A stretch of 22,450 nt of DNA from Treponemataceae bacterium (GTDB lineage: Bacteria > Spirochaetota > Spirochaetia > Treponematales > Rectinemataceae). Positions 1 to 19,801 of this stretch are shown in pieces. The DNA is taken from NCBI GenBank assembly GCA_963677895.2, contig CAXXGJ010000028.1, positions 1 through 22,450 on the forward strand, given 5' to 3'. Below the pieces are notes generated by a model. It saw only the letters and a program-made list of their open reading frames with translations. It ran no database searches and was not told where the DNA came from. The stretch's first letter is position 1. The number at the start of each line of letters is the position of its first letter. Position numbers and translations under genes: made by a program.

Positions 1-1497
1 GCTCTCCTCGATGACGGGCGGATCGGCCAGCTTATAGGCTTCGGAATAGCTCACGACATGGATGATCTGAGGACTGGTCTCGTCGCGAGGCTCGATGTCG
101 TCCATCATGGCGGTCACCGCGGCCAGCTGGGCCTTGGCCCGCTCGGGTTCTGGCGAGAAATAGTCCAAGCCTCCCCGCGGCTGGAGGAAGACCCTGAAAT
201 TCCCGTCCTCGAGCCCTTTCACCAGCTTGAGAAGGGTCCTGGCCTTGGCGAGGTCCTGGATGCCCCAGAGGTATTTGGGCGTATTGAACATTATCTGCAG
301 GACGAGGTTCCGGATGCCCTGCAGCTTGGCGGCCTTGGCCGCGATATAGCCCGACACGATATAGCCTAGGTCGTCGCTGCCCCTGAAAGCGAAATGATGC
401 GGCACGTTCATCTCGAGCGGTTTGCCCGTCGAGGCTATGTAGCGCATGGCCTGAAAATGCTCCCTGAGGTTTTCAAGCACCGAATTGGGACCTCTTCCGT
501 CCAGCTTGCAGAACCACCACAGGGAAAGCGCGTGCCAGGCTATATCGATCGTTTCCTCGTACATCCTGGCGAGGGCCGGCACATCCTTGGTGCCCGCGTA
601 GGTACGCACCAGCATGGGGCGCGCCGCCTTCCATACAGCCGCGAACTCGGCGGCGCTGGCGAGGGGAACGCCGCCGCCGTTGATCTTGCCTTCCCAGTCT
701 TCCCCGAAATTGGATTGGCTGAGCTGGGAAGTGCCGATCGAGAGAATGTCCAGATAGCCGCCCGAGGCCAGCCGCTTCACCCACTCGGTGAAAAGCCTGA
801 CCGCTTCCTTCCTGTCGGGCAGGTAGGGGCCGGCATGGACGCGTATGAGGGGCGGGAGCTTTCGGGCAGTGCCATGGGCGATCCTCGCCGTCAGCCTGTC
901 GCCCCAGGCGCCGAATCCGGGAGAGTCGGACCTGTTGACGGGCTTCACCGCGTTGTAGCGGCCTTCCTTCACGAGGGACTCGCCGAAAGCCATCCTCGCG
1001 ACGTCGTACTTGAGACCTTCGGAGAAGGTTTGCGGCATCATGTCCTCATCTATGCCGAGGATGCGCATCGTCTCGTGGGGCGCTTCGTCGCCCCGGAAAA
1101 CGCCTGTCAGATCGGGATGCCGGGCGAGCGCCGCCTCGCAGGCTTCAGGAAGCCCGGCGAAAAACAGCCCCCTGATAGGACCGCCATCCGAAAGAAGCAT
1201 TTTCTCGCGGTGGAGGAACTCATATAGGACTTCGAAAAGATGGAGGGCATCGGCGGGGTCCAGCCGGTAGCTGAAGCCGAGCACCGAAATTTTCCTGTTG
1301 CGAAGCCAGGCACGAAGCACGGTGCCGCCCTCGTGCCTGGAAAGGGATTCGATATCGCCGCCGACATCGGCGTCGGCGATGCGGGATTCTATGCCGCAGT
1401 CCTCCAGGACCTGGGCGAAGGAAAGCATCCCGAGGGTATGCACGTCTATCGAAGGCCGAATAAGGCCGAAAACGTCATGTCTGGAAATTTTAAACAT
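1..1497 (-). CDS. Cobalamin (B12)-binding domain protein fused to a putative TIM-barrel catalytic domain; 3'-partial (runs off the window)
   Basis: Absent from the ORF track because no stop lies in the window. Hand translation from ATG 1497 (RBS AGGAGGT just upstream) is open for 499 codons: MFKISRHDVFGLIRPSIDVHTLGMLSF (DxHxxG cobalamin motif)...LGFSYRLDP...FFAGLP...LDILSIGTSQLSQ...NGGGVP...LVRTYAGT...WHALSLWWFCKLDGRGP...QIMFNTP...IIHVVSYSEA. Confidence 0.85.
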   Translation of the reverse strand, partial: MFKISRHDVFGLIRPSIDVHTLGMLSFAQVLEDCGIESRIADADVGGDIESLSRHEGGTVLRAWLRNRKISVLGFSYRLDPADALHLFEVLYEFLHREKMLLSDGGPIRGLFFAGLPEACEAALARHPDLTGVFRGDEAPHETMRILGIDEDMMPQTFSEGLKYDVARMAFGESLVKEGRYNAVKPVNRSDSPGFGAWGDRLTARIAHGTARKLPPLIRVHAGPYLPDRKEAVRLFTEWVKRLASGGYLDILSIGTSQLSQSNFGEDWEGKINGGGVPLASAAEFAAVWKAARPMLVRTYAGTKDVPALARMYEETIDIAWHALSLWWFCKLDGRGPNSVLENLREHFQAMRYIASTGKPLEMNVPHHFAFRGSDDLGYIVSGYIAAKAAKLQGIRNLVLQIMFNTPKYLWGIQDLAKARTLLKLVKGLEDGNFRVFLQPRGGLDYFSPEPERAKAQLAAVTAMMDDIEPRDETSPQIIHVVSYSEAYKLADPPVIEES

Positions 1498-1501
1498 CGT
1501 A

Positions 1502-2536
1502 TCACCTCCTAGTCCGGATCGAACGGCTGAGGGCCGCCTCGATGATAGCCAGGATATATTGCTTCTCCGAGAGATGCGCCTGCCGCGCGCAGGCCTCGAA
1601 CCAAGCGTCGGGAATCATGGGCTGGCCGTTGATTTCGATGGCCCAGAATTTCCCGCCGGCGAAAATCATGTCGCATCGGGAATAATCCCTGATATCCCCC
1701 GCCGACGAGAAGGCCGCGGCCGCGAAGGCCCGGGCCGCCTCGCGCAAGGATCCGTCCGCTATCGGCCGGGCTTCGGTCCTGCTGCCGTCCTTATCCTCTG
1801 TCGTGACCACGTGAATGCCGGGAGGATCGATAAAGACAATTTCCACGGGCATGAGGAGCCTCTCCTCGCCGTTGCCGATGCATGCGCAGGTGATTTCGCG
1901 GAAATCGGGGTAGAGCCCCAGGTAATGCTCGATGAGGATATGCCTGAAATCCTTGCCCAGGCTGGCGACGAGGGAAGCCAAGGCTTTCATGTCGAAAACG
2001 ACCGAATCCTTCGTGATGCCGCGGGAGTTGCCGGCGTCCGACGGCTTCACGATGCAGGGAAAGGGGGGAATCGAGGACCTGTCCACGGCGGAAAGATCGG
2101 AACCTGAGTTCAAGGAGAGGAACTCGGGCGTGGATATTCCGTCCTTTACCCATTTTTCCTTGAGCGCCGTCTTGGAAAGAGCGAGCTCTATGATATCGGG
2201 AGGGGAGCCCACATAGGGGATTCCCCTTCCCTCCAGCCAGCCATGCACGTTTATCCTGGCGTTCGCCGGGCAGGCGACGCCGACGGGCATCGGGGAGGAC
2301 TCGGGCAAATGGTCGGGGGCGCTGAAAACAAGGTCGGGGCCGAATTCGGCGATGAGGGCGGAAAGCATAGCGATGGAGTCGGGGCATGCCAGCCTGGCGG
2401 TGAATCCGCCGTCGGCGAGGATCGACGCGAACCGGCCGAAGCGCCGATCGTCGGCCATGGCCACGGCGGGATTGGAAGAACGTGAAAAAAGGATCAGTAC
2501 TCTTAAGGATCTTGCGTTTTTCGGCGCATCATCCAA
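1502..2536 (-). CDS. ATP-grasp ligase, D-Ala-D-Ala ligase-like
   Basis: ATP-grasp motifs IPYVGS, LALSK, PCIVKP, GNSRGI, LIEHYL, REIT, RCD, IEIN. TTG start preceded by AGGAGG. The stop overlaps the RBS of the B12 gene. Confidence 0.8.
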   Translation of the reverse strand: MDDAPKNARSLRVLILFSRSSNPAVAMADDRRFGRFASILADGGFTARLACPDSIAMLSALIAEFGPDLVFSAPDHLPESSPMPVGVACPANARINVHGWLEGRGIPYVGSPPDIIELALSKTALKEKWVKDGISTPEFLSLNSGSDLSAVDRSSIPPFPCIVKPSDAGNSRGITKDSVVFDMKALASLVASLGKDFRHILIEHYLGLYPDFREITCACIGNGEERLLMPVEIVFIDPPGIHVVTTEDKDGSRTEARPIADGSLREAARAFAAAAFSSAGDIRDYSRCDMIFAGGKFWAIEINGQPMIPDAWFEACARQAHLSEKQYILAIIEAALSRSIRTRR

Positions 2537-2654
2537 AACGTGGTGCCTCCTGAAAAGAAGGATACATTGAGTTTAACACAGGAAAACCGAAAAAAGTCCC
2601 GCGCGGGCGAAAAAAACAAAATTTCCGGCCAGGGGCCGCGGTCCCCGTCGATAC

Positions 2655-2683
2655 TTTACCTAATTGTATCGCTACTATATAGT
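2655..2683 (+). promoter_or_regulatory. Candidate sigma70 promoter, possibly for a leaderless transcript
   Basis: TTTACC-N17-TATAGT with ATG 2691 following 7 nt later and no Shine-Dalgarno sequence. Confidence 0.4.
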
Positions 2684-2690
2684 TCATTCC

Positions 2691-3581
2691 ATGCTTTTCA
2701 TCGACAGACCAGACGGCAAAAAAGTCCGACAAGCCCATGCGCTCAACGCGCTTATGCCCTACATGATGCGCGGACGCAATCAATCGGCCGTGTACTATGA
2801 GAAGGACGTGGATGTCGAGAATATCCTGCGCTTCGTGAGGGCGAGAAACTCGGGACTGAAGAATCAGAACGAGAATTCGGGCCAGGATCGATATTCATTG
2901 TTTTCCCTCGTTCTGGCGGCGATGGTGCGGACCGTGGCGATCAGGCCGGAACTCAACCGTTTCATACACGGCAAGGCCCTCTACCAGCACAACGACATTA
3001 CCATGTCATTCATCGTGAAGCAGAAAATGACGGAAGAAGCTCCGGAAGGAAGCGCGAAGGTTGTTTTCAAGCCCGAGGATGATCTCGATACGGTGACGCT
3101 GAAGGTAAACAAGGCTATCAACTATGTGCGGGAAGTAGGGGAAGGCGGGGACGGCGAGAAGATAGCCAAGCTCGCCCACAGCATTCCCGGCGCCAAGGCT
3201 CTCCTCATCGGTCTCTACAGGATTCTCGACCGCTTCAATCTTGCCCCGAAAGGCCTTATCGAAGTGGACCCCTTCTACGCCACCCTCTTCTTCGCGAATT
3301 TGGGCAGCATCGGACTCGACGCGCCCTTCCACCATCTTTACGAATGGGGCACCATTAGCTTCTTCGTGGTGATGGGCAAACTCACGCAGAAGGACAGCCA
3401 CCACGGCCCCTTCGGCACGAAACACCACTTCATAAATTTCAAGGTAACGGTGGACGAAAGGATTTCCGACGGTCTCTACTTCGCGCGCTCGGCCTCGGTC
3501 TTCTACAGGCTCATCGCCAGTCCCGAACTGCTCGACATGCCCCTGGAGCAGGCCAAAGCCCAGCTGGAAAAAGGCATATAG
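2691..3581 (+). CDS. Stand-alone 2-oxoacid dehydrogenase E2-type acyltransferase catalytic-domain protein
   Basis: RPELNRFI, FFANLGSIG, VTVDERISDG (E2 DHRxxDG-like). No lipoyl or E3-binding domain. Start placed at ATG 2691. Confidence 0.8.
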   Translation: MLFIDRPDGKKVRQAHALNALMPYMMRGRNQSAVYYEKDVDVENILRFVRARNSGLKNQNENSGQDRYSLFSLVLAAMVRTVAIRPELNRFIHGKALYQHNDITMSFIVKQKMTEEAPEGSAKVVFKPEDDLDTVTLKVNKAINYVREVGEGGDGEKIAKLAHSIPGAKALLIGLYRILDRFNLAPKGLIEVDPFYATLFFANLGSIGLDAPFHHLYEWGTISFFVVMGKLTQKDSHHGPFGTKHHFINFKVTVDERISDGLYFARSASVFYRLIASPELLDMPLEQAKAQLEKGI

Positions 3582-3584
3582 CCG

Positions 3585-3845
3585 CTAGGCGCTCTCCTTC
3601 TTGGTGCCGCTCGCGGGACAGGTCTCGCAGCTCTTGGCGGCGCTCTTCGTCGACGCGCTGCCCGCTTTCTTGGAGTCGGTGATATAGAAACCACTGCCCT
3701 TGAAGATGACGCCGGTTCCGCCGCCGATCAGGCGCCTGACGGCTCCGCCGCACTTGGGGCAGACCTTGACAGGATCCTCGGACATGGACTGGAACTTTTC
3801 GAAAGTAAGATTACACTCTCGGCATTCATACTCATACGTAGGCAT
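3585..3845 (-). CDS. FmdB family zinc-ribbon protein
   Basis: MPTYEYECRECN...CPKCGG...FKGSGFYITD is the FmdB signature. Confidence 0.92.
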   Translation of the reverse strand: MPTYEYECRECNLTFEKFQSMSEDPVKVCPKCGGAVRRLIGGGTGVIFKGSGFYITDSKKAGSASTKSAAKSCETCPASGTKKESA

Positions 3846-3944
3846 TTAGATTAACCTCGGTCTAGCGAAATGATGAAATGTTGGTTCGAGTAGAAAATAT
3901 AGCGAAAACCTCCCGGAACGTAAAGTAGGCGCGGAGAAGCTCCC

Positions 3945-5181
3945 TCATGCCTTGATCACGCCCAGCCTTCTTCCAACCTTGGTAAAAGCCTCCACGGCGA
4001 AGTCGATCTGCCCCGGTTCATGGGCGGCGGAAATCTGCACCCTTATGCGAGCCTTGCCCCTCGGCACGACGGGGAAGGAGAATCCGATGACATAGATGCC
4101 TTCCTCAAGAAGGGCATCGGCCATGTCGTGGGCCAGTTTTTCGTCGTACAGCATGACCGGGCAGATAGGATGGACGCCGGGTCTGATGTCGAAAGCCCGC
4201 CGCCGTCATCTTCTCCCTGAACCGCCTGGTATTCGCCTCGAGCTTGTCCCTCAGGGCGGTCGACGCGCTGAGAAGTTCGAGAGCCTTCAGCGTGCCTCCC
4301 ACGATGGAGGGCGCCACGGTGTTGGAGAAGAGATAAGGCCGGGCCTTCTGCCTCATGTACTCGACGATTTCCTTCCTGGCGGCGATCACGCCGCCGGAAG
4401 CCCCGCCCAGCGCCTTGCCGAAGGTGGTGGTGATGATGTCCACCCTTCCCTTCACGCCGCAATGTTCCCAGGTGCCGCGCCCCGTCGCCCCGGTGAATCC
4501 GGTGGCGTGGGAATCGTCCACCATGACGAGGGCGTCATATTTCTCGGCGAGCGCGCATATGGATTTGAGATCGGCGATGTCGCCGTCCATGGAGAAGACG
4601 CCGTCCGTGGCGATCATGCGAATCCTCGCGTCAGACGCCTCTTTCAGGCAGCGCTCGAGCCCCTTGGCCACCTTGCCGGTGTCGGGGTCGGTCTCTTCGA
4701 TATCGCGCATGTCGGCATGCTTAAAAACGATGCGTTTGGCCTTGCAGAGCCTGACGCCGTCGATGATGGAAGCATGATTGAGGCTGTCGGTTATGATCGC
4801 GCAATTCTCGTCCAGCAGAGGCTCGAAGACGGCGCCATTGGCGTCGAAACAGGATGAGAAGAGAATGGCGTCCTCGGTGCCGAGGAACTCCGCGACCCTG
4901 CGTTCGAGAAGCTTGTGGGGACTCTGGGTGCCGCAGATGAATCGGACGGAAGCCATTCCGTAACCCCATTCCTCCATGGCCGCTTCGGCCGCCGCCCGGA
5001 TTTCGGCGTTGTTCGCGAGGCCAAGATAGTTGTTGGCACAGAAGTTGAGGACTTCATTGCCGCCCACGACCCTGATAGCCGCGTCCTGAGGCGTCGCGAT
5101 GACGCGTTCATCCTTGTAGAGACCTTCCGTCCTGATGGCCGAAAGTTTCTGCCGCAGCTCTTCCTTGATCAAACCGTACAT
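3945..5181 (-). CDS. kbl: Glycine C-acetyltransferase (2-amino-3-ketobutyrate CoA ligase); apparent 1-nt insertion frameshift near 4192-4194
   Basis: [71 protein letters not shown]. The C-terminus ([22 protein letters not shown]) is in another frame; removing one base restores [18 protein letters not shown]. Confidence 0.95.
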
Positions 5182-10036: not shown

Positions 10037-12499
10037 TGTCCACGCAGCACAGCGCCCTCGTCGAGGCCGGCCAAAGACTGACGCCGCAGATCTGCGGAGA
10101 ACTCGTGCAAGCCATCGAGTCGGCCGGCGGCATCGAAGTATTCGCCATCGGCAGCCTCGACGAGGCCGGCCTCGTCCGCGAGGTGGAAATCGTCGCCCGC
10201 GGGACCATCGATACCGTTCCCGCCCTCGGCCCCTACTTCGAAAAAGGCTCCGTCCTCATCCACAATCATCCTTCGGGCTACCTCCAGCCCTCCGAGGCCG
10301 ACGTCGCCATCGCGGCCGACGCGGGCACCTACGGAGTCGGCAGCTACATCGTCAACAACGCGGTCTCGGAACTCTACATCGTGGCCGAACCGGCGCGCAG
10401 GAAATCCTACCGGATGCTGGACGAGGAAGGCCTCTCCGGCGCCCTCGACCAGGGCGGCAAGCTTTCCCAGAAAATGCCCGCCTTCGAACCCCGCGCCTCG
10501 CAGATCGCCATGACCTCCGACGTGGCCTCCCTCTTCAACCAGGGCGGCATCCTCGCCGCCGAAGCCGGCACCGGCGTCGGAAAATCCTTCGCCTACCTCG
10601 TGCCGGCCATGGCCTGGGCCCAAGGCAACGAGGAAAGAGTCGTCATCTCCACCGCCACGATAAACCTCCAGGACCAGCTCTTCTCCAAGGACATCCCCCT
10701 CGTCGCCTCGATCTTCAAGAAAAAGCTGAAGGCCGTCCTCGTCAAGGGCAGATCCAACTATGTCTGCAAGCGGAGACTGGGCGAGGCCATCGAGGAGGAA
10801 GGCCTTCTCCTGGACGACGAGAGCCCCCTCAAGCGAATTCTCGCCTGGGACGAATCGGGCGGCTCCGGCGACAGGGCCGACCTGCCTTTCCGCGTCGAGG
10901 ACCAGGTGTGGAACAAGGTCTGCTCCGAGGCCGACGCCTGCATTTCGATACGCTGTCCGAGCAGGGAGCGCTGCCACGTGATCTCGGTGAGGAAAAACGC
11001 GGCCGACGCCCAGATCATCGTCGTCAACCATCACCTGCTTTTCGCCGACCTGGCCTCCCGGCAGCGGGGTTCGGGCCTCGAGCAGACCTCCATCCTCCCG
11101 GCCTATTCCTCCTTGATCCTGGATGAAGCCCACTCGATCGAAGCGAGCGCGACGAGTCTCTTCACCGAGAGTTTCACGCGCTTTTCCGTCGTCAAGAAAC
11201 TCTCCCGGCTCTGGCGCAAGAACAGGACGGGACAGTTCGGCGCCCTCGCGAAGCTTTCCGTCATCCCCGCGATCGGGAAATCCCTCCTCAAGTCCTTCGA
11301 GCCGGCGGTGAAGGAAATCCAGGGCTCGATGTCGGACCTGGAAGCCGCCACCATCCGCCTTTTGTCGACCGAGACGACCCTGCGGCTCAGGGAGAAAAAC
11401 CAGGAGATCGTCTCCTCGGTCTGCGAACCGGCGGGCAGGCTCCAGCGCTCCATTCTCGCCCTCACGAAGATCATCGCCGACATCCTGGAGACCCTGCCCG
11501 AATCGCGCGCCCAGGACCCCTCGGCCTTCGAGGCGCGGATCATAGCCCGAGGCTTAAACGAGTTGGCCGATCTCATCGCGAGGCTCAAGGATTTCGACGC
11601 GAATCCCGACACGATCTTCTGGCTCGAAAAATCGCGCACCTCGCAGAAGGACATCTTCATATCGTTCAACGCCACGCCCCTCGAGGTGGCGGCCATCCTC
11701 GAACGCTCGGTCTTCGAGAAGGTGAGGACGGTGGTCTGTACCTCGGCCACCCTGTCGGTGGGCGGCAGCTTCGATTTCTGGATGAAGCGGATCGGCATTT
11801 CCAAGCAGCGCGAGGACGTGGAGACGAAGCACTACCCCTCGCCTTTCCCCTTTTCCTCGAACGCCATCCTGGCCGTGGATTCGCAGGCGCCCGAGCCCGC
11901 AGAAGGCCAAGGAAGCTTTCAAAAGCTACGTGGGCGACGCCGTCGTCCGCCTCCTCACGGCCTCCAGGGGGCGGGCCTTGGTCCTCTTCACGAGCTACGA
12001 CATCCTTTCGGCCACCTTCGAGAAGGCCAAGCCCGTCATGGAGAAGGCCGGCATCACCTGCTTCAGGCAGGGCATGGACGACCGCTCTCGGCTCCTCACC
12101 ATGTTCAGGAACGACATCTCGTCGGTCCTCTTCGCCACCGATTCCTTCTGGGAAGGCGTCGACGCGCCCGGGGAGACGCTTTCGATGGTCGTCATCACCA
12201 AGCTGCCCTTCAAGGTTCCCAACGATCCCATCCAGCAGGCCCGCGCCGAGGCCGTCGAGAAGCGCGGCGGCAATTCCTTCATGGAAATCAGCGTGCCCGA
12301 GGCCATCATCAAGTTCAAGCAGGGTTTCGGCAGGCTCATCCGCCACTCCGACGACAGGGGCGTGGCCGTCGTTCTCGACCAACGTCTCGCCACGGCTCGA
12401 TACGGCCAGCTTTTCATCGAAAGTCTCCCGAAATGCAAGCTGATCACCGATGGCATCGAGACGATAGCCCTGGAAGTGGAGCGATTCCTGGACGCTTGA
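10036..12499 (+). CDS. DinG/YoaA-family ATP-dependent helicase with N-terminal JAB/RadC-like domain; apparent 1-nt insertion frameshift at 11896-11898
   Basis: EAGTGVGKS, STATINLQDQL, KGRSNYVC, Fe-S cysteines, DEAH, TSATL. The second frame carries LFTSY, FWEGVD, KLPF, QGFGRLIR. N-terminal HNHPSGxxxPSxxD. Confidence 0.92.
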
Positions 12500-12566: not shown

Positions 12567-13824
12567 ATGAAAGATACCTCGGCCCCCGTTTTCAAGCTCG
12601 AAAACACGATACGCAACTACGCGTGGGGGAGCTATAACGGACTTTCGCTCTATGCTGGCGTCGTCACCGACTCAGGGAAGCCTTCGGCCGAATGCTGGAT
12701 GGGCTCGCATCCGGACGCTCCCTCCTCTCTCCTCCTGCCGGACGGCAAGGCTCTTCCCCTCCCGAAGTACATCCACGACAATCCCATGAAGAGTCTCGGC
12801 GAGGAGGTTTTCGCCGAGTTCGACGACCTGCCCTTCCTTTTCAAGGCGCTTTCCGCCTCGATGCCCCTCTCCATCCAGGTGCATCCCGACAAGGCGCGCG
12901 CCGAGATCGGCTTCGAGCGCGAGGAAAAACGCGGTCTCGCCGCGATCGGCGCCCGAGCGCGACTACAAGGATAGGAACCACAAGCCCGAGCTGGCTGTCG
13001 CCCTTTCACCCTTTTCGGCGCTCTGCGGTTTCAGGAGCGCGGGCGAGGCCGCGGAAATGCTGGGTCCCGAGCTTTGCGGGTATTTCGGTTTTTCGGCCCT
13101 CGACGCTGAGGCCTCGCTGCGCGGTCTTTTGGGGAAGGCTCTCGCCCTGCGCGATAAAGAAAGGACGCTGCTCGAGCTCAAAGCGACTTCCCGCGCGCGG
13201 GATCTCGCGAAGAGCGAGGATGAGGGCGCGAGAATCGCCGGACAAACCGTCCTCATGTGCTTTCAGCACTATCCCCATGATCCGGGCGCGATTTCCCCGC
13301 TTTTCATGAATGTGCTTTTCCTCGAGCCCGGGCAGGGCATCTATATTCCCGCTGGCGTCATGCATGCGTATCTGAAGGGCACGATTCTCGAGATTATGGC
13401 CACCTCCGACAACGTGATCCGGGGCGGGCTCACGCACAAGCATGTCGATGTCGACGATCTCCTCGGCACCCTCGATTTCAAGGCCGAGCCTACGCTCATC
13501 GAGCCCGTCGCCGGTATTTCCGGCGCGCGCGAGGTTTTCTGGCCTACGCCGGCGCGCGAATTCGCACTCTCGCGCTTCGATCTTTCCGACCAGAAGCACG
13601 CCGAAGTGAAGCCAAACGGTCCCGAAATTCTTCTTTGCACCGCGGGCCAGGCCACCATCGACTGCTCTTCCGACGCCAATCCATCCATCGTCCTCAAGCG
13701 AGGCGAATCCGTCTTCGTGGGAGCGGCCTGCAAATCCTATTCCCTGCGCGGTCCCTGCACGGTCTACCGCGCTCGCGTAGGCTCGCTCGCCTCCTCTCAT
13801 GTAGTTCCCGAGGCGTCGCCATGA
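12567..13824 (+). CDS. manA: Mannose-6-phosphate isomerase, class I; frameshift near 12952-12954
   Basis: NYAWGS, AECWMGSHP, LPFLFK, LSIQVHP, then after the frame change RDYKDRNHKPEL, HAYLKG, EIMATSDNVIRGGLT. Confidence 0.93.
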
Positions 13825-14276
13825 CGATCTGGGTGGATGGGGACAGCGCCCCGCGCGACATCCGCCCTATCCTCGTGCGCCGCGGCGCAAACATCCCCGT
13901 GCGCTTCGTCTCAGCCCGCAAGCTTCCCGACGTGCCCCCTGCCCTCGCTATCCTAGTGCCCGCGGGACCTGATGCCGCCGACCGCTACATCGAAGAAAAC
14001 GCCTCGTTGGGCGACCTCGTCGTCACCCGCGACATCCCCTTCGCCGAGCGCCTCGCTGAAGCGGGCATTACCGCGATCAGCGACCGCGGCGAACTCTACA
14101 CGAAAGAAAACGCTTCCGAGCGCCGTTCCCTACGCGATGCCGCCGCCGAACTTCGCTTTTTGGGCATGGCGCCAGCTTCACCAAAGGGGTCACATAGAAC
14201 GGCTAAGGAAACAAAACAGTTTGCGGATGGGTTGGATAGGGCGCTAGTAGCGTTAAGAAATCTGAATCCTTTATGA
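13821..14276 (+). CDS. yaiI: YaiI/YqxD (UPF0178, DUF188) family protein
   Basis: MTIWVDGDS, DAADxxI, GDLVVTRDIP, RGELYT, FADGLDR. ATGA overlap with the manA stop. Confidence 0.88.
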   Translation: MTIWVDGDSAPRDIRPILVRRGANIPVRFVSARKLPDVPPALAILVPAGPDAADRYIEENASLGDLVVTRDIPFAERLAEAGITAISDRGELYTKENASERRSLRDAAAELRFLGMAPASPKGSHRTAKETKQFADGLDRALVALRNLNPL

Positions 14277-14335
14277 TTGTATAGCATTATTATTAAAGAA
14301 ACGTATAATAATTGTTAGGTCGAGAGGAGAGAAAA

Positions 14336-15202
14336 ATGAAAAAAGACGATAAAGTTTTTTGTATGTGTAAAAATTGTGCTGGTAAAAGAAATCATGATGT
14401 AATGTATTCATATACAGAAGAAACAAATCCTGAATATCGCATAGATATTTCATATGCAATAATTAAATGTCGAGGCTGTAATAATATATCATTTTTACGT
14501 CAGGTTGAAGATTACGAAGTAATGATTCCCATAGATGAAGAAAAGTATGAACCAGAAACTACTCAAGAAATTTATCCAAAATCAATTGAAGATTATAAAG
14601 AGAATAGGGATATATACCTTATTCCTGAAATTGTAAGAAAAATATATATGGAAACTATATCAGCAATAAAAAATGGACAATCAATAATTTCAGGAATAGG
14701 TCTTCGTGCAATTATTGAAGCAATATGTAATGATAAGGATATCAAAGGTAGAGACTTAAAATTTCGAATTAATAAATTGGCTTCTCTTGGCATAATTGCT
14801 AGAGATGATGCAAGGCGGCTTCATGCGATTAGATTTTTAGGAAATGATGCAGTACATGATATTAAACCTGCAAAAAAAGACTCTATTATAATAGCATTAA
14901 ACATAATTGATCATACTATACAATCACTTTATACATTTAATGATAGTGGTGAATATTTAGAGCTTCCCATTAATGAATATATTGATTTAGAAAAGTTAAT
15001 ACTTTTAGCATTAAAAAAAATGTCGATTGGAACTAAATTTACTTTTGCAGGAATATTAGGAAAAGATATTAGAAGGGTGGAAGATGTTGAAATCATGGAA
15101 AAAGAGTTTTTTGAGAAAGTAAAATGTGGAAATTATAAAGAAATTAATAGCCAAGTAACATTAGAGAATAATAAAAATAAATATGAAAAAATAATGGCCT
15201 AA
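14336..15202 (+). CDS. DUF4145 (HEPN-like) domain protein with N-terminal zinc finger; cassette 1
   Basis: ATG 14336 after AGGAG. CKNC...CRGC, then LRAIIEAIC...LKFRINKL...LHAIRFLGNDAVH. The stop TAA lies inside the attC R'' GCCTAAC. Confidence 0.85.
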   Translation: MKKDDKVFCMCKNCAGKRNHDVMYSYTEETNPEYRIDISYAIIKCRGCNNISFLRQVEDYEVMIPIDEEKYEPETTQEIYPKSIEDYKENRDIYLIPEIVRKIYMETISAIKNGQSIISGIGLRAIIEAICNDKDIKGRDLKFRINKLASLGIIARDDARRLHAIRFLGNDAVHDIKPAKKDSIIIALNIIDHTIQSLYTFNDSGEYLELPINEYIDLEKLILLALKKMSIGTKFTFAGILGKDIRRVEDVEIMEKEFFEKVKCGNYKEINSQVTLENNKNKYEKIMA

Positions 15203-15321
15203 CAAATGCTTCAATTTTATAAAACATTTTGGCATGGTTTTTGCGAAAAGTTCACACAAAAACCATGCCAATCCTTCGCTTCGATCAGGAACAGGCGTAA
15301 AGATTTAAGCCAATATTAGGT
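15197..15321 (+). repeat. attC-like site 1 (125 bp)
   Basis: R'' GCCTAAC; L'' GCTTCAA pairs with L' TTAAGC leaving one extrahelical base; perfect 15-bp stem TTGGCATGGTTTTTG (15229-15243) / CAAAAACCATGCCAA (15257-15271); R' ATTAGGT (G>A). Confidence 0.85.
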
Positions 15322-15345
15322 TTATTATATAGCTAAGGAGTTGTT

Positions 15346-15759
15346 ATGAAAAAAAATCAATATATTATTGGTAATTGGCTAATATATACAGTACTTATTG
15401 GACTAATTCCGACATTTTCAAAGATAATTATATTCTTAACAGTAAATGATGAAAAAATTAGTTCTATATTTGATCCTCTTGATTTTGTTTCTTTTGGGTT
15501 AGTGTTATGTGTATCAATAATTACACAAATTCAAAAATATAATAGAGATAAAAGCTGGAAAATATTTTCTATTGGAATAACAATATTTTTATTAGTATTT
15601 TATGGAATATTATTTTCTGAATCATATTTATCAAAAAAGCTACCTAATACTATAAATTATAATAGTTTAACAATTATTACACTTATAATTGCAGGAATAA
15701 ACTTTGTATATGCATTTTCAGTATTTTATAAGACAAATTTGGAGAAGAAATATGCTTAA
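15346..15759 (+). CDS. Hypothetical membrane protein with about 4 TM helices; cassette 2 gene 1
   Basis: TAAGGAG RBS; four hydrophobic stretches. Confidence 0.8.
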   Translation: MKKNQYIIGNWLIYTVLIGLIPTFSKIIIFLTVNDEKISSIFDPLDFVSFGLVLCVSIITQIQKYNRDKSWKIFSIGITIFLLVFYGILFSESYLSKKLPNTINYNSLTIITLIIAGINFVYAFSVFYKTNLEKKYA

Positions 15760-15886
15760 TATGATTATTCCTATAGCCATTATAATTTCAATAGTAGTTT
15801 TGTCATTTTCCATGTATACTATTATATCAACTAGAAATAGATACTATAAAGAATATCAAAGGAGAAAACACCATGAACAATATTAA
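15752..15886 (+). CDS. Small single-TM protein (44 aa) with basic tail; cassette 2 gene 2
   Basis: GGAG at 15741 then ATG 15752; overlaps both neighbours; MLNMIIPIAIIISIVVLSFSMYTIISTRNRYYKEYQRRKHHEQY. Confidence 0.65.
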   Translation: MLNMIIPIAIIISIVVLSFSMYTIISTRNRYYKEYQRRKHHEQY

Positions 15887-16826
15887 ATCATTTATATATT
15901 TAGATAGCTATAAGTTGTATTCAATATCTTCTCAAATATTTGAAGGACTTACAGAATCAGTTATAGAGTATACTGGAAAGGAAGCACTTACAAGTGAAAG
16001 CCAAAAAGGTCCAATTGCAAGTGGAAAAATTATTGGTGATATTCTAAAAAATAGTGAAGGAAGAAAAGAAATAAAATATTTGTATGATTATGCTTACATT
16101 TTATTTGAAAAAGCATTGATCGAAAATGAAAAAGTAAATGTTTATGGATATGGAGATACTACATCAGTAAAAGTTGGTGAAAAGCCATTTATTAAGATTA
16201 AGGGAAAAATCAAATTTAAGGATTCAAAAAAAACAATTAATACGTTTAAGGAATTTAATAGAATAGGTGAAGCACTATCGTATGTTACTACATATTCATC
16301 ACAGGGTCAGATAAAAAGAGGCATTGACGAAAAAGTAAATAGTATAACAGATAGAAATCAAAAAGTAAGAGTTAGAGCAAAATTAGAAGCTGAAGTCAAA
16401 GCAAATCTAAGAACAGCTATGGAATCAAATGGATTGCATATGGATGAAAAATATTTAGAAAAAATGGCAGAAATTTTAGAATATGGATATAAAGATGCTT
16501 TTGAAATCGAAATGCCTTTTAAAATGGAAGATAATGTAGCAATAATTTCGTGTCTCTTAAATAGAGAATACTTACGAGAAAACGAAAATTTAATTATTAA
16601 CAAATATTCTCGTGCAACTGAAAGAGAAATAACCCTATTTGGAATTGAAACCCAAAAATATGGACCGAAGATAAAAAGTGAAAATGAAAAAAATGAAGGA
16701 GTTAAATCATTGAAACAATCTATGAGCGCTATGACAGATGCTATAATTGCAGTTGAAGATAATTTTATTGGAAAAGAAGAAAATGAAATAATTATAGATC
16801 CAATTGCAATATATCTTGAGCTGTAA
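15873..16826 (+). CDS. DUF6414-like protein; cassette 2 gene 3
   Basis: AAGGAG RBS. N-terminal IKSFIYLD..KLYSISSQIFEG and C-terminal IIIDPIAIY match my recollection of DUF6414. Confidence 0.7.
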   Translation: MNNIKSFIYLDSYKLYSISSQIFEGLTESVIEYTGKEALTSESQKGPIASGKIIGDILKNSEGRKEIKYLYDYAYILFEKALIENEKVNVYGYGDTTSVKVGEKPFIKIKGKIKFKDSKKTINTFKEFNRIGEALSYVTTYSSQGQIKRGIDEKVNSITDRNQKVRVRAKLEAEVKANLRTAMESNGLHMDEKYLEKMAEILEYGYKDAFEIEMPFKMEDNVAIISCLLNREYLRENENLIINKYSRATEREITLFGIETQKYGPKIKSENEKNEGVKSLKQSMSAMTDAIIAVEDNFIGKEENEIIIDPIAIYLEL

Positions 16827-16834
16827 AAATCAAA

Positions 16835-16953
16835 ACCTAATAACCGCTTCAACTATATAAATCATTTGGTATGGTTCTAGCAAAAAGATTGCGCAAGAAC
16901 CACACCAAGCCCTTCAGGTACTGATTTAAAGAAAGGTTAAGCAATTTTTAGAC
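16835..16953 (+). repeat. attC-like site 2 (119 bp), same family as site 1
   Basis: R'' ACCTAAT, L'' GCTTCAA, stem TTGGTATGGTTCTAGC / GCAAGAACCACACCAA, L' TTAAGC, R' TTTAGAC. Box spacings are identical to site 1. Confidence 0.8.
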
Positions 16954-17014
16954 GGACGCTCTGCCGCGTTTCGCATACAGTAAAAGCACGGATAATTCGT
17001 AAAGGAATTAAAAA

Positions 17015-17338
17015 ATGATTGGAAAATATAAAATCATAACGCTTTGCGGAAGCACACGCTTTAAAGAACAATTTATTGAACAACAGAAGAGATTAACGCT
17101 TGACGGTGTCATAGTTATGTCAGTCGGACTTTTCGGGCACTCTGGCGACACAATAACTGACGAACAAAAGATCATGCTTGATGATATGCATAAGCGTAAA
17201 ATCGACATGGCTGACAGTGTTTTCGTTATAAACGTTGGTGGGTATATTGGATCGTCAACAAGAAGCGAGATTGATTACGCACTCTGCATGGGCAAATCGG
17301 TTGATTATCTTGAGCCGCCTAACCATGATTTAACCTGA
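17015..17338 (+). CDS. Small nucleoside 2-deoxyribosyltransferase-like protein; cassette 3
   Basis: IITLCGSTRF...KIDMADSVFVIN..GYIGSSTRSEIDYA resembles the NDT-like flavodoxin fold with a conserved Glu. AAAGGA RBS. Confidence 0.7.
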   Translation: MIGKYKIITLCGSTRFKEQFIEQQKRLTLDGVIVMSVGLFGHSGDTITDEQKIMLDDMHKRKIDMADSVFVINVGGYIGSSTRSEIDYALCMGKSVDYLEPPNHDLT

Positions 17339-17376
17339 CTCAGTCTGCAACTTCGCAGGTTAAATAGTAGCTAAGA
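17317..17376 (+). repeat. attC-like site 3 (60 bp, short type)
   Basis: R'' GCCTAAC, perfect 10-bp stem ATTTAACCTG (17328-17337) / CAGGTTAAAT (17356-17365), R' GCTAAGA at the same spacing as the other sites. Confidence 0.7.
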
Positions 17377-17390
17377 AAATTGGAGGAATA

Positions 17391-18758
17391 ATGCCAATGC
17401 ATTCAAGGATCACTCTTTCTATGACGGTCCTGCTTGTATTTTTAACTTCCTGTACATCAAACCCCTATGTCACAAAAGAAATTGACACGAAAAATCCTTA
17501 CCAAAGGGATTTTTTGATTCTTGCTGATTACATTCGTAAAAACCATGCCGGTTTTTACAAGACTCCTTTGCAGACAGTTTCATTTCATGATTATGACGAG
17601 TTAGTCGCCACGACTGCGCAGAGGCTTAAGAATGTCAGCAATACTTCTGATTTCTATTACGAAATCGCTCCATTCATCACTTCATTGCATGACGGACACA
17701 CAAGAATCAATACATCGGTTGGAAAATCTATGGGCATTGGCGCTTGGTGGTTCGATTATAAGCTTATCATTACTTCTGTCACCGATCCCTCGGCCGCCGA
17801 AATCCTGTATTCAGAGATTATGGCCATATCCGGCAAGCCAGTTGGAGACATCGAAAAAATCGCCAATCAGTTTATTCCTGCGGATATGGGCCAGGATGAC
17901 TATAAAAAAATGTATAGCCCTGACCTGATGCTATCCAGTTTCCTTCTTCTTCACTTGGGGCTGATGAACGAGAGAGAGGAAGTTGAGCTTACAGTGGTGC
18001 AAAATGGTGAGAAAAGGAATATTACCTTAGGGTGTACCTTCCCTTCTGCCTCAAGCGCATACGCCATTCCGGCAAGATTCCGAAACGATACTACTGAAAT
18101 TAAGCCTGGTAATACGTACGCCATCATTCCAGATTCGAACAGTTTATATGTGCAGCTTAATTCTTTGCCTCAATCAGGTTATTCCGAGTTTTGGCATGAA
18201 GCATTCGCTTTCGCGCGAAAGAATAAAGCGACCTCCCTTATTCTTGACCTAAGAAATAATTCTGGAGGAAACAGCATTTGGTGCAATGAATTTCTTTCGT
18301 ATATCATCGATAAGCCTAGGGATCTCTATGTCTACGATGGCTGGAAATCCAATTTTCCACATGGAAATGTTAAAGTCTCCAAAGGGCTCTGGCATATGGC
18401 ACCAAAAAATCGCGAACTTTCCTTTACAGGAAAAATCGTGGTTTTGACGAGTCGTCAAACATTCAGCTCGGCGACTTTTTTCGTCGTCGCGATTAAAGAC
18501 AATGATTTAGGAATCATCATAGGCGACCAAGTCGGAAACGGTTCCATACGTTATGGTTTCATGTCCGATCCTATCACCTTGCCGTATACGAAAATAAAGT
18601 TCGCGACGACCCACTATATCTGGGCAAGAGCCAATAAAGAAATGCTCACCAAGGAAGGCGCTTCGATATTGCCCAATATCAGGGTTTATGAAACAATCGA
18701 GGACCTGAAAAGCGGAACCGATCCAGTCTATGAGAAGGCGATAGAGTACTTGGAATGA
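17391..18758 (+). CDS. S41 family peptidase, lipoprotein
   Basis: GGAGGA RBS, lipobox LLVFLTSC, LHDGHT, LILDLRNNSGGN, TFSSA, IIGDQVG. Confidence 0.88.
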   Translation: MPMHSRITLSMTVLLVFLTSCTSNPYVTKEIDTKNPYQRDFLILADYIRKNHAGFYKTPLQTVSFHDYDELVATTAQRLKNVSNTSDFYYEIAPFITSLHDGHTRINTSVGKSMGIGAWWFDYKLIITSVTDPSAAEILYSEIMAISGKPVGDIEKIANQFIPADMGQDDYKKMYSPDLMLSSFLLLHLGLMNEREEVELTVVQNGEKRNITLGCTFPSASSAYAIPARFRNDTTEIKPGNTYAIIPDSNSLYVQLNSLPQSGYSEFWHEAFAFARKNKATSLILDLRNNSGGNSIWCNEFLSYIIDKPRDLYVYDGWKSNFPHGNVKVSKGLWHMAPKNRELSFTGKIVVLTSRQTFSSATFFVVAIKDNDLGIIIGDQVGNGSIRYGFMSDPITLPYTKIKFATTHYIWARANKEMLTKEGASILPNIRVYETIEDLKSGTDPVYEKAIEYLE

Positions 18759-19801
18759 TGTTCGATATTATCATTATCGGCGCGGGTCCTGCCGGCGCAA
18801 CATTCGCGCGATTGGCGGAACGACACCTAAATATACTCCTCGTGGAAAAAAGCCTGGATCGTGAAAAATGCTGCGGAGGCCTTGTGGCGCCCGACGCGCA
18901 GAAAATGTTCGCGCGCTTCGATCTTGGAATTCCCAAGGAAATAATATCCGATCCACAGCTCTTCTACGTCAGGTCCATCGACCTTGAAACCAATCGCGAG
19001 GGCAAATACCAAAGACATTACACCAATATAAACAGAAGGCTACTCGATCAATATCTTATCAAGAAATTGCCCAGCAACGTGAAGCACATGGCCGGGGGGC
19101 AGTATTTAGGGCATAGGCAAGAGAAGGGCGAGATCATCGTATCCATACGACATAACGGAGAAGTAGCGGAACATTCATGCAGGGTCCTGGTGGGCGCCGA
19201 TGGCGCCCATTCATCGGTGAGGAAAGCTCTTTACGACGATTTTCACAAAATCAGGAAATACCTGGCAATTCAGGGAGAATATAGGCTGGAAACATCCATC
19301 AACCACTATGCCGTGTTTTTCGACCGGGGCATAAGCGATTTTTACTCCTGGCTGATACCGAAGGGCGACACCGTTCTGGTTGGAGGCGCCTTTGACGAAA
19401 GGAATAACGCCAAACAAAAGTACCGGAAATTGATCGAGGAAGTGGTTTTATATGGCTATAGCTTGGGGGCTCCAGTAAAGCTGGATGCGTGCTATCTATT
19501 ACGCCCGCGGTTGAGGGACATAAAAACCGGCCAAGGCGGCGTCGCGTTGATAGGCGAAGCCGCCGGCCTTATCAGCCCAAGCTCGTCGGAAGGATTGAGC
19601 TACGCCTATCGAAGCGCCTATACGCTGGCCAAAACGCTACAAGATGCCGCCGCCTTCGATATCAAGAAGTATGATAAAGGCATCCTCGGACTTCGGATAA
19701 ATATCTTCATGAAAAACATCAAGGGACTCTTCATCTACAATTCTTTTTTAAGGAACCTGATATTCAAGATGAATATCGGCACCATTAAAAATGGCCGATA
19801 G
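18755..19801 (+). CDS. cbrA: FAD-dependent oxidoreductase, CbrA (YidS)/geranylgeranyl reductase family
   Basis: GAGPAG, KCCGGLVAPDAQ, DPQLFYVRSID, YQRHYTNINR, VGADGAHS, FYSW..PK, IGEAAGLISPSSSEGLSYA closely follow E. coli CbrA. Confidence 0.85.
   Translation: MMFDIIIIGAGPAGATFARLAERHLNILLVEKSLDREKCCGGLVAPDAQKMFARFDLGIPKEIISDPQLFYVRSIDLETNREGKYQRHYTNINRRLLDQYLIKKLPSNVKHMAGGQYLGHRQEKGEIIVSIRHNGEVAEHSCRVLVGADGAHSSVRKALYDDFHKIRKYLAIQGEYRLETSINHYAVFFDRGISDFYSWLIPKGDTVLVGGAFDERNNAKQKYRKLIEEVVLYGYSLGAPVKLDACYLLRPRLRDIKTGQGGVALIGEAAGLISPSSSEGLSYAYRSAYTLAKTLQDAAAFDIKKYDKGILGLRINIFMKNIKGLFIYNSFLRNLIFKMNIGTIKNGR

Follow-up and report, generated by a model that had tools for sequence, protein, structure and literature searches.

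A three-cassette integron array behind yaiI in a Treponemataceae genome occupies a re-used attI-like site and is probably loaded by an integrase encoded elsewhere

The stretch of DNA analyzed here, hereafter the window, is an entire 22,450-nt contig (C28, CAXXGJ010000028.1) of the Treponemataceae bacterium assembly GCA_963677895.2 (G000; 3.5 Mb in 39 contigs, 92.8% complete and 5.5% contaminated). Behind a gene of the yaiI/YqxD family, its G+C content drops from about 0.61 to 0.23-0.32 over positions 14,300-17,000, and in this interval lie three co-oriented gene cassettes with their attC recombination sites, headed by a lone GTT-like site that we term the dock (Table 1). A preliminary description, made from the letters of the window alone, had proposed that these features form an attC site cluster that lacks an integron-integrase (CALIN). 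The proposal is borne out by the homology breaks between related loci and by the TTAGGC start of cassette 3, both detailed below, and the gene in front of the array is indeed yaiI, not intI, its match to NF001095 being below the cut-off. The same left flank is found at all orthologous loci.

Table 1. Features of the yaiI locus in the window
Feature	Position	Strand	Remarks
yaiI/YqxD-family gene	13821..14276	+	PF02639, E 6.8e-24; start overlaps the end of manA; fixed left flank
attI-like dock	14298..14320	+	lone GTTAGGT at 14314-14320; homology break; nine inserts at the same base; attI matrix score 7.6
Cassette 1	14315..15315	+	1,001 bp; between dock and attC1
Cassette 1 gene	14336..15202	+	288 aa; Cys4 zinc finger, DUF4145 (HEPN) and an extra C-terminal domain
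attC1	15197..15321	+	R'' GCCTAAC includes the stop codon; R' decayed to ATT; 102.7 bits
Cassette 2	15316..16947	+	1,632 bp, two genes with no attC between them; R'' matches upstream R' 6/6
Cassette 2 gene 1	15346..15759	+	137 aa, hydrophobic; no family at cut-off
Cassette 2 gene 2	15873..16826	+	317-aa DUF6414 protein; PF19952, E 2.3e-18; 369 relatives
attC2	16835..16953	+	R'' AAT and R' TTT, both core triplets decayed; 69.2 bits
Cassette 3	16948..17370	+	423 bp, distal; common to C4, G001 and G002
Cassette 3 gene	17015..17338	+	107 aa, no named family; no Pfam, PADLOC or NCBIfam match
attC3	17317..17376	+	short form; R' GCT, where the C4 copy has GTT
S41 peptidase gene	17391..18758	+	PF03572; forms the right flank of each of the five genus-level loci that extend this far

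The three palindromes of the array are attC sites of the same family as those of contig C39 of the same assembly, attC3 being the weak member. C39 is a 46-kb run of co-oriented cassettes with both ends cut, and 27 of its attC sites served as the sole training set of our covariance model, which finds 50 plus-strand sites on C39 itself. In the window the model recovers attC1 at 102.7 bits (E 2.5e-27) and attC2 at 69.2 bits (E 1.3e-17), which together make up the two clustered attC sites that a CALIN comprises at minimum. The 60-nt attC3 scores weakly, with 11.6 bits on the plus strand (E 0.61) and 15.5 bits on the minus strand (E 0.046) at the exact coordinates, and its support is orthology: the copy on contig C4 has canonical AAC and GTT triplets, and the R and L boxes fold with probabilities of 0.98 and 1.0. 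All three bottom strands fold better than their shuffles (z of -4.3, -3.7 and -2.4 for attC1, attC2 and attC3, with equally good shuffles in 0/200, 0/200 and 3/200 cases), and the L''/L' stem with its extrahelical base is present. The pairing probabilities of the three sites are 0.26, 0.52 and 0.99 for the L boxes and 0.78, 0.83 and 0.13 for the R boxes, the C39 medians being 0.87 and 0.99. Further copies of the repeats are also evident, as a pattern scan of the assembly returned 28 attC-type matches, the majority on C39, vs 0-2 in each of five block shuffles. An Rfam search of the window gave nothing real, only a single chance match (E 0.99). With regard to the attC architecture described at the outset, the stems, folds and places stand, with a qualification as to the cores: no R' is canonical (ATT, TTT and GCT), and the R'' of attC2 reads AAT.

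The boundaries of the cassettes can be placed from two directions. Homology of the window to its sister loci stops at 14314-14319 and restarts at 16934 or 17378, and the first bases of cassette 3 in the C4, G001 and G002 copies are TTAGGC, which its R'' complements exactly. The preliminary description had further read a footprint of circular integration from the agreement of each R'' with the R' at the start of its cassette, at least as good as that with the R' at its end. Its counts were reproduced exactly (5/6 vs 5/6 for cassette 1, 6/6 vs 4/6 for cassette 2 and 5/6 vs 3/6 for cassette 3); three cassettes alone make a weak case, which is backed by the rule found in C39, where among cassettes shorter than 1.3 kb the four variable positions are fully matched upstream in 19/21 and downstream in 4/21 (p 5e-4). 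A crossover shifted by one base was considered for cassette 2, whose R'' matches ATTAGGT at 7/7; a general G/C to A/T decay explains this match equally well. At most cassette starts a short palindromic leader of the GACGC type follows directly behind the R box, for example at 16948-16975 of the window.

The dock had been recorded in the preliminary description as a lone GTT, but not recognized as a conserved attI-like site in repeated use. A GTT-like site lies 23-44 nt past the yaiI stop codon in nine loci, with repeats counted once (the window, contigs C4 and C13, and the loci G001, G002, G017, L074, L075 and L080), and the sequence that begins with its G is a different one in each of the nine. 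C28, C4 and C13 are contigs of one assembly that carry three versions of a manA-yaiI-[array]-S41 peptidase locus with flanks 90-98% identical, and likely represent co-binned strains; the homology of the window to both C4 and C13 ends at 14318-14319. The post-yaiI locus had been named beforehand as the place to look for cassette turnover, and turnover is what the comparison reveals, with nine different inserts at one base. In the window, the crossover point would fall between G14314 and T14315, 38 nt past the yaiI stop. The C4 and L075 docks read GTAAGAT at the junction, not GTTAGAT, which reflects either decay or a tolerated non-canonical crossover.

Growth of the arrays appears to be polar as well. 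In the window, C4 and G001, extra cassettes lie between the dock and cassette 3, and none lies after it; cassette 3 is the last cassette in all four of its carriers, and in G002 it sits directly at the dock in an internally deleted form. The public runs X2 and X3 contain two further attC ends ahead of cassette 3. Insertion at attC3 would add cassettes rightward, and therefore at least the cassette adjoining cassette 3 entered at the dock each time. Judging from this arrangement, cassette 3 is likely the oldest cassette. The R'' of the first cassette complements the R box of the dock at 7/7 positions in G001, L080 and L074, at 6/7 in the window, C4 and C13, and at 5/7 in L075. It is through the comparison of loci only that a preference for polar entry, as expected of an attI, emerges. 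Other marks of an attI are IntI-dependent recombination with attC and an associated Pc promoter. The covariance model found no attC in G002 or G017 (150 candidates scored in each), probably due to unassembled arrays, and this is not evidence of absence.

The dock is confined to one part of the yaiI tree. The site-bearing yaiI genes fall in one clade (support 100/100), L080 being too short for the tree. Ten other yaiI loci lack the site, all of them with matrix scores below -4 (the matrix is described below), and seven more, read by eye, lack it too; the distant yaiI loci L081-L086 and L095 (at most 44% identity) lay outside the comparison. A literal search for the dock pattern is too strict for a survey and returned five places in 4/61 genomes of the family. 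As a separate observation, the last 90 nt of yaiI (14184-14273) have a G+C content of 0.41-0.54 and an identity of 0.80-0.86, vs 0.89-0.92 elsewhere in the gene, in those seven genus-level loci of the tree that carry the site, and no such faster divergence or AT enrichment is seen in the loci without the site (0.58-0.72). This end could hold an embedded promoter or reflect local mutagenesis beside the dock.

In its left half, the dock resembles an attI. We derived a matrix from the 16 bases before the G in 14 intI-linked sites of the family and order, with three Treponema-like sites left out and 2/19 loci giving none. The dock scores just under most true sites and ranks 18 of 73,308 GTT occurrences, or 67 of 73,308 once the two G-adjacent positions, which are forced by site picking, are removed; even against AT-rich GTT contexts it still falls within the top 0.2%. 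In sequence, it resembles a simple site of the intI-linked attI type. Other small arrays of the same assembly have heads that rank 3 (C13), 13 (C6) and 35 (C30), and those on C2 and C5 score 4.7 and -3.8. C2 and C5 form a second orthologous pair (C2 around 328,200 and C5 around 7,600, both on the minus strand; L102 and L103), in which homology again breaks at the same G and different defense-like cassettes follow. In the congener G001, intI lies on contigs C1, C5 and C7, and the 2.36-Mb contig C3 carries a yaiI dock together with four further array heads that are attI-like; the footprint is 7/7 at each of them, the unusual GTTATAT included. Several details of these further docks are also worth recording. 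On the minus strands of C6 (around 171,300-173,450; L104) and C30 (around 16,000-19,200; L105) of the window's assembly, the left halves are near-identical to that of the yaiI dock; the C6 cassette encodes a UG17 reverse transcriptase, and C30 has a gene-less first cassette followed by a split UG9 reverse transcriptase with a PolA partner. The C30 dock and one on C3 of G001 (around 1,654,000; L108) both start with a gene-less cassette, 156 nt to its attC, with the same first bases.

No intI adjoins the array, as it would in a complete integron, and neither TIGR02249 nor PF00589 has a match anywhere on the 22.4-kb contig (14 kb of flank on the left, at most 8 kb on the right). The absence of an integrase claimed in the preliminary description is correct for the locus, whereas the organism may well encode one. 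In the assembly as a whole, the closest tblastn matches to IntI queries (28-29% identity) are ordinary tyrosine recombinases, and IntI is found above the cut-off in 24/40 relatives searched, both congeneric genomes included. In the congeners, the cassettes run in the direction of intI, whose stop codon is followed by attI after 137-173 nt. The genes beside the congeners' intI likewise have no orthologue in the window's assembly, and the missing intI is therefore more likely an assembly gap than a loss. Separately, the three intI copies of G001 (L070-L072) encode proteins with a length of about 430 aa and a long N-terminal extension, and each copy heads its own array, which reflects either a strain mixture or true multiplicity.

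Based upon these features, the array is probably a three-cassette CALIN behind yaiI whose attI-like satellite dock is likely loaded in trans by the host's Treponema-type integrase encoded elsewhere. In such a scheme, IntI would recombine the folded bottom strand of the attC of a circular cassette with the dock at G14314|T14315, and each newcomer would enter at the dock and shift older cassettes to the right, leaving cassette 3 as the oldest. Transcription of the cassettes might occur by read-through from the co-oriented manA-yaiI genes or from a promoter in the AT-rich yaiI end. The attC core triplets of the window copy would have mutated later, presumably locking the cassettes in place with the GTT of the dock intact. 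The dock itself may go back to a copied attI or to a hotspot that drifted. The idea that the dock is itself a promoter found no support, as a TATAAT lies five bases before the G without a -35 element at consensus spacing.

Several observations weigh against this explanation. Firstly, the acting integrase is assumed by analogy from the congeners, and no IntI above the cut-off occurs in the 92.8%-complete assembly itself. Secondly, the record of loci is uneven: three of the nine belong to the window's own assembly, the weakest locus, G017, has a cassette-type leader but its contig ends before any attC, L078 belongs to the same yaiI clade and has AT-rich genes but no site, and no empty dock, with yaiI joined directly to the S41 peptidase gene, was found. 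Thirdly, the dock scores of 1.6-12.6 are mostly below the leave-one-out scores of true attI sites (8.3-21, with one outlier at -12). The matrix alone is not predictive: only four of the 40 genome sites that score best are array heads, and one region of G001 (L112) and all five G019 regions scored yielded none. Lastly, a promoter consensus scan of 14150-14420 gave no sigma-70 match on the plus strand and one on the minus strand, as in shuffles, and the decay of the attC cores is a small sample (3/3 sites).

An unlikely alternative is that the locus is what remains of a complete integron, either because an intI between yaiI and attI was deleted or because attI and its array moved behind yaiI; in this case, what differs between the loci would be left over from a long ancestral array instead of having been captured later. 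One deletion would suffice for the layout, given that intI in this family is co-oriented and lies directly upstream of attI, as is also described in the accessible part of the Treponema report (PMC3607928), and both the attI likeness, which spans about 17 bases, and the lack of IntI in the assembly fit such an origin. However, the distance from the yaiI stop to the G is only 23-44 nt, vs 137-173 nt behind the intI stops, no intI remnant is present, and none of 15 loci tested has an intI match downstream of yaiI. Furthermore, yaiI of the outgroups adjoins an epimerase or a convergent gene, G001 has an intact intI elsewhere together with five such heads, and nine different first inserts would require the ancestral array to be trimmed differently each time.

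Somewhat more doubtful still is an ordinary insertion of a single cassette, once, into a random GWT site (attG) with later growth at attC sites, the attI likeness being due to chance or AT-richness. IntI reportedly inserts at GWT genome-wide with hotspots near attI efficiency (10.1101/2022.09.11.507474, as far as its available portion goes), and most of the top matrix sites have no cassette. The direction of growth argues otherwise, as additions at attC3 would lie to the right of cassette 3 and all extras lie on its left; so do the different first cassette at every locus and the rank of the dock among AT-rich GTT contexts, and the hotspots described in that portion differ from attI in sequence and structure. 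A strong and re-used attG hotspot would merge with the explanation of an attI-like dock loaded in trans.

It is very improbable that the variety stems from homologous recombination between strains that swaps the entire yaiI-S41 interval, rather than from continuing use of an integrase. The high identity of the flanks (90-96%), the faster divergence of the last 90 nt of yaiI and a contig of run X1, which joins a window-type cassette 2 to C4-type cassette 3 variants, are all compatible with swapping. Yet swapping merely redistributes alleles, whereas nine different G|TT junctions with a matching R'' each need an integrase event, and the X1 mosaic may be a path of the assembly graph. An assembly chimera, in which a foreign array was mis-joined to yaiI, is largely refuted despite the three locus copies in the assembly and the two single-base insertions that split dinG and manA, because run X1, possibly the source sample, contains an 853-bp contig that covers 14027-14879 with 0 differences and six loci from other assemblies have the same kind of junction. 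A joint in run X2 that skips 15296-16932 could be taken for an excision, but it rests on 40 bases inside a repeat and was not counted.

The decay of the attC cores, like the re-use of the dock, was absent from the preliminary description, which had placed the lone GTT and the sites correctly. GTT is retained in 0/3 attC sites of the window vs 48/50 in C39 (p 4e-4), and AAC in 2/3 of the window sites; among all satellite sites of the assembly, both triplets are intact in 8/15, vs 47/50 in C39 (p 7.5e-4). The differences of attC1 from its nearest C39 site are G/C to A/T in 14/18 cases, and mostly likewise in a second comparison (11/17). For attC2 a cross-check is at hand, as its odd bases are also present in a contig assembled separately from run X1, possibly the source sample, with no differences listed over the site; the window contig has two probable single-base errors elsewhere. 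Since the integrase cleaves attC at AAC on the bottom strand (10.1101/2022.09.11.507474, in the part available), the decayed cassettes of the window are probably poor substrates, and from their sequence this copy of the array is likely immobilized at present. The dock itself still has an intact GTT.

When compared with known systems, the locus shares features with several of them without matching any fully. Like the CALINs of Cury et al. 2016 (PMC4889954), it carries two or more attC sites within a small array with no intI nearby; in contrast to those CALINs, as the accessible text presents them, its left edge is identified, clade-conserved and attI-like, and takes different first cassettes. 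That text names intI loss, rearrangement and insertion at secondary sites by an integron elsewhere as CALIN origins, and states that attI sites outside classes 1-3 were not searched. The GTT at 14314 agrees with the GWT core of attG sites, at which Loot et al. (10.1101/2022.09.11.507474) described insertion outside integrons, with hotspots, under the heading of attG and single attC sites lacking an integron-integrase (SALIN). Unlike the E. coli hotspots of that report, which in the available portion are experimental and unlike attI, the dock is natural, long-lived and attI-resembling, and heads polar arrays. An attG is further marked by a CRGM motif right of the cut; the left half of the dock is attI-like, and there is no empty site to show the right half. 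An integrase-less array headed by an attI has been described once (PMC9892861), though the portion of that report at hand concerns one prophage with a near-exact attI copy and shows no turnover, whereas the present docks are chromosomal, diverged, several per genome and represented by nine alleles. CALINs away from ilvD in Xanthomonas (10.1101/2025.06.18.660453) similarly recur as integrase-less arrays at fixed chromosomal loci; they are read as ancestral activity, and no attI-like head or proximal turnover is named in the part available. The chromosomal integrons of Treponema (PMC3607928, likewise in part) share the attC type, including long forms of 115-132 bp, and the intI-attI-cassettes layout of the congeners, and differ in that yaiI takes the place of intI here and the spacer is 38 nt vs about 160. 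Judging from the accessible parts of these sources, CALINs, secondary-site insertion, one CALIN with its own attI and fixed-locus CALINs are already in print. The literature searched, with subscription journals and preprint supplements outside its reach, gave no account of turnover across a clade at attI-like satellite docks. Specific to the window are the decay of all three attC sites and the RAZR-like nature of its first cassette.

The product of cassette 1 is predicted from its sequence to be an anti-phage RNase resembling RAZR/PD-T7-4. It matches PF13643 (E 1.3e-16) and the PADLOC PD-T7-4 profile (E 1.7e-6), and among 70 aligned sequences C45, C48, R166 and H174 are invariant and C11 and C14 at least 90% conserved. 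It shares with RAZR/PD-T7-4, as described in the available part of PMC13017515, the N-terminal Cys4, the DUF4145 HEPN domain and an R and H eight residues apart (R146/H154 in RAZR, R166/H174 here). It differs from them in its length, with about 80 extra C-terminal residues, and in its weak profile match. Phage-triggered ring assembly and abortive infection are further hallmarks of RAZR/PD-T7-4. The fold predicted from the alignment has a confidence score (pLDDT) of 90, vs 34 from the single sequence; its best structural match is the HEPN toxin 7AE6, a weak one (E 0.015), no match in the PDB reached E 0.001, and no solved chain was matched by sequence. The 137-aa product of cassette 2 is probably a membrane protein, and the DUF6414 gene of the same cassette turned up neither in the 300 other order-level genomes searched nor in plasmids. 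The preliminary description had expected homologues of the cassette genes to be flanked by attC sites elsewhere, and this applies to cassette 3 only, a 72%-identical relative of whose protein is encoded by a cassette in an intI-linked array of G001. It does not apply to cassette 2 or to cassette 1, whose relatives occur in 2/300 genomes of the order with no attC of the C39 type beside them.

Genes at the docks are matched by defense profiles more often than those of the C39 array, and on this basis the docks are likely used for anti-phage genes. At yaiI docks, 6/13 genes match PADLOC at E 1e-4, vs 6/50 in C39 (with two cut genes of 52 left out), one of the matches being strong (Shedu SduA) and the others TIR, HNH and AAA ATPases. 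Over all satellite loci, the count is 17/28, including DRT reverse transcriptases, SoFic and PDC-M19, where some of the 28 genes lie beyond the last attC and one split gene is counted twice. In these counts, longer genes match more, ATPase matches are generic and the loci are kin. Dock cassettes are also larger than those of the library, with a median of 1,273 vs 825 bp and more than 1 kb in 7/10 vs 6/49, in contrast to the small size reported for integron defenses in the accessible part of 10.1101/2024.07.02.601686.

Taken further, these features tentatively suggest a two-tier integron, a possibility we would at present hold to be less probable than not, in which a big silent library beside intI coexists with several integrase-less attI docks behind host genes. 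Large anti-phage cassettes unfit for the library would be captured in trans at the docks, transcribed by the host and locked in by attC core decay with the dock remaining open. If true, many small CALINs and defense hotspots would thereby gain a concrete and testable origin and life cycle. The locus is a natural case in which the point of entry is known to the single base, is used again in loci throughout a clade and has several counterparts within a genome whose intI lies elsewhere, so that an origin of CALINs in trans becomes directly testable. The unnamed genes of these docks can be regarded as candidate anti-phage systems of new kinds.

The S41 peptidase gene, behind which the covariance model finds no attC, is either the native flank or an old cassette without attC. 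Single extra G bases at 11889 and 12939 split a dinG-like gene and manA, respectively, and are likely assembly errors, as the C4 copy lacks both. Positions 1-4857 of the window match the end of contig C14 in the same assembly at 99.2% identity, and large parts of contigs C4, C13 and C5 duplicate other contigs as well. Finally, a stretch of about 160 bp at 18654-18815 of the window is present twice in C4, where the two copies flank a 7-kb transporter insertion.

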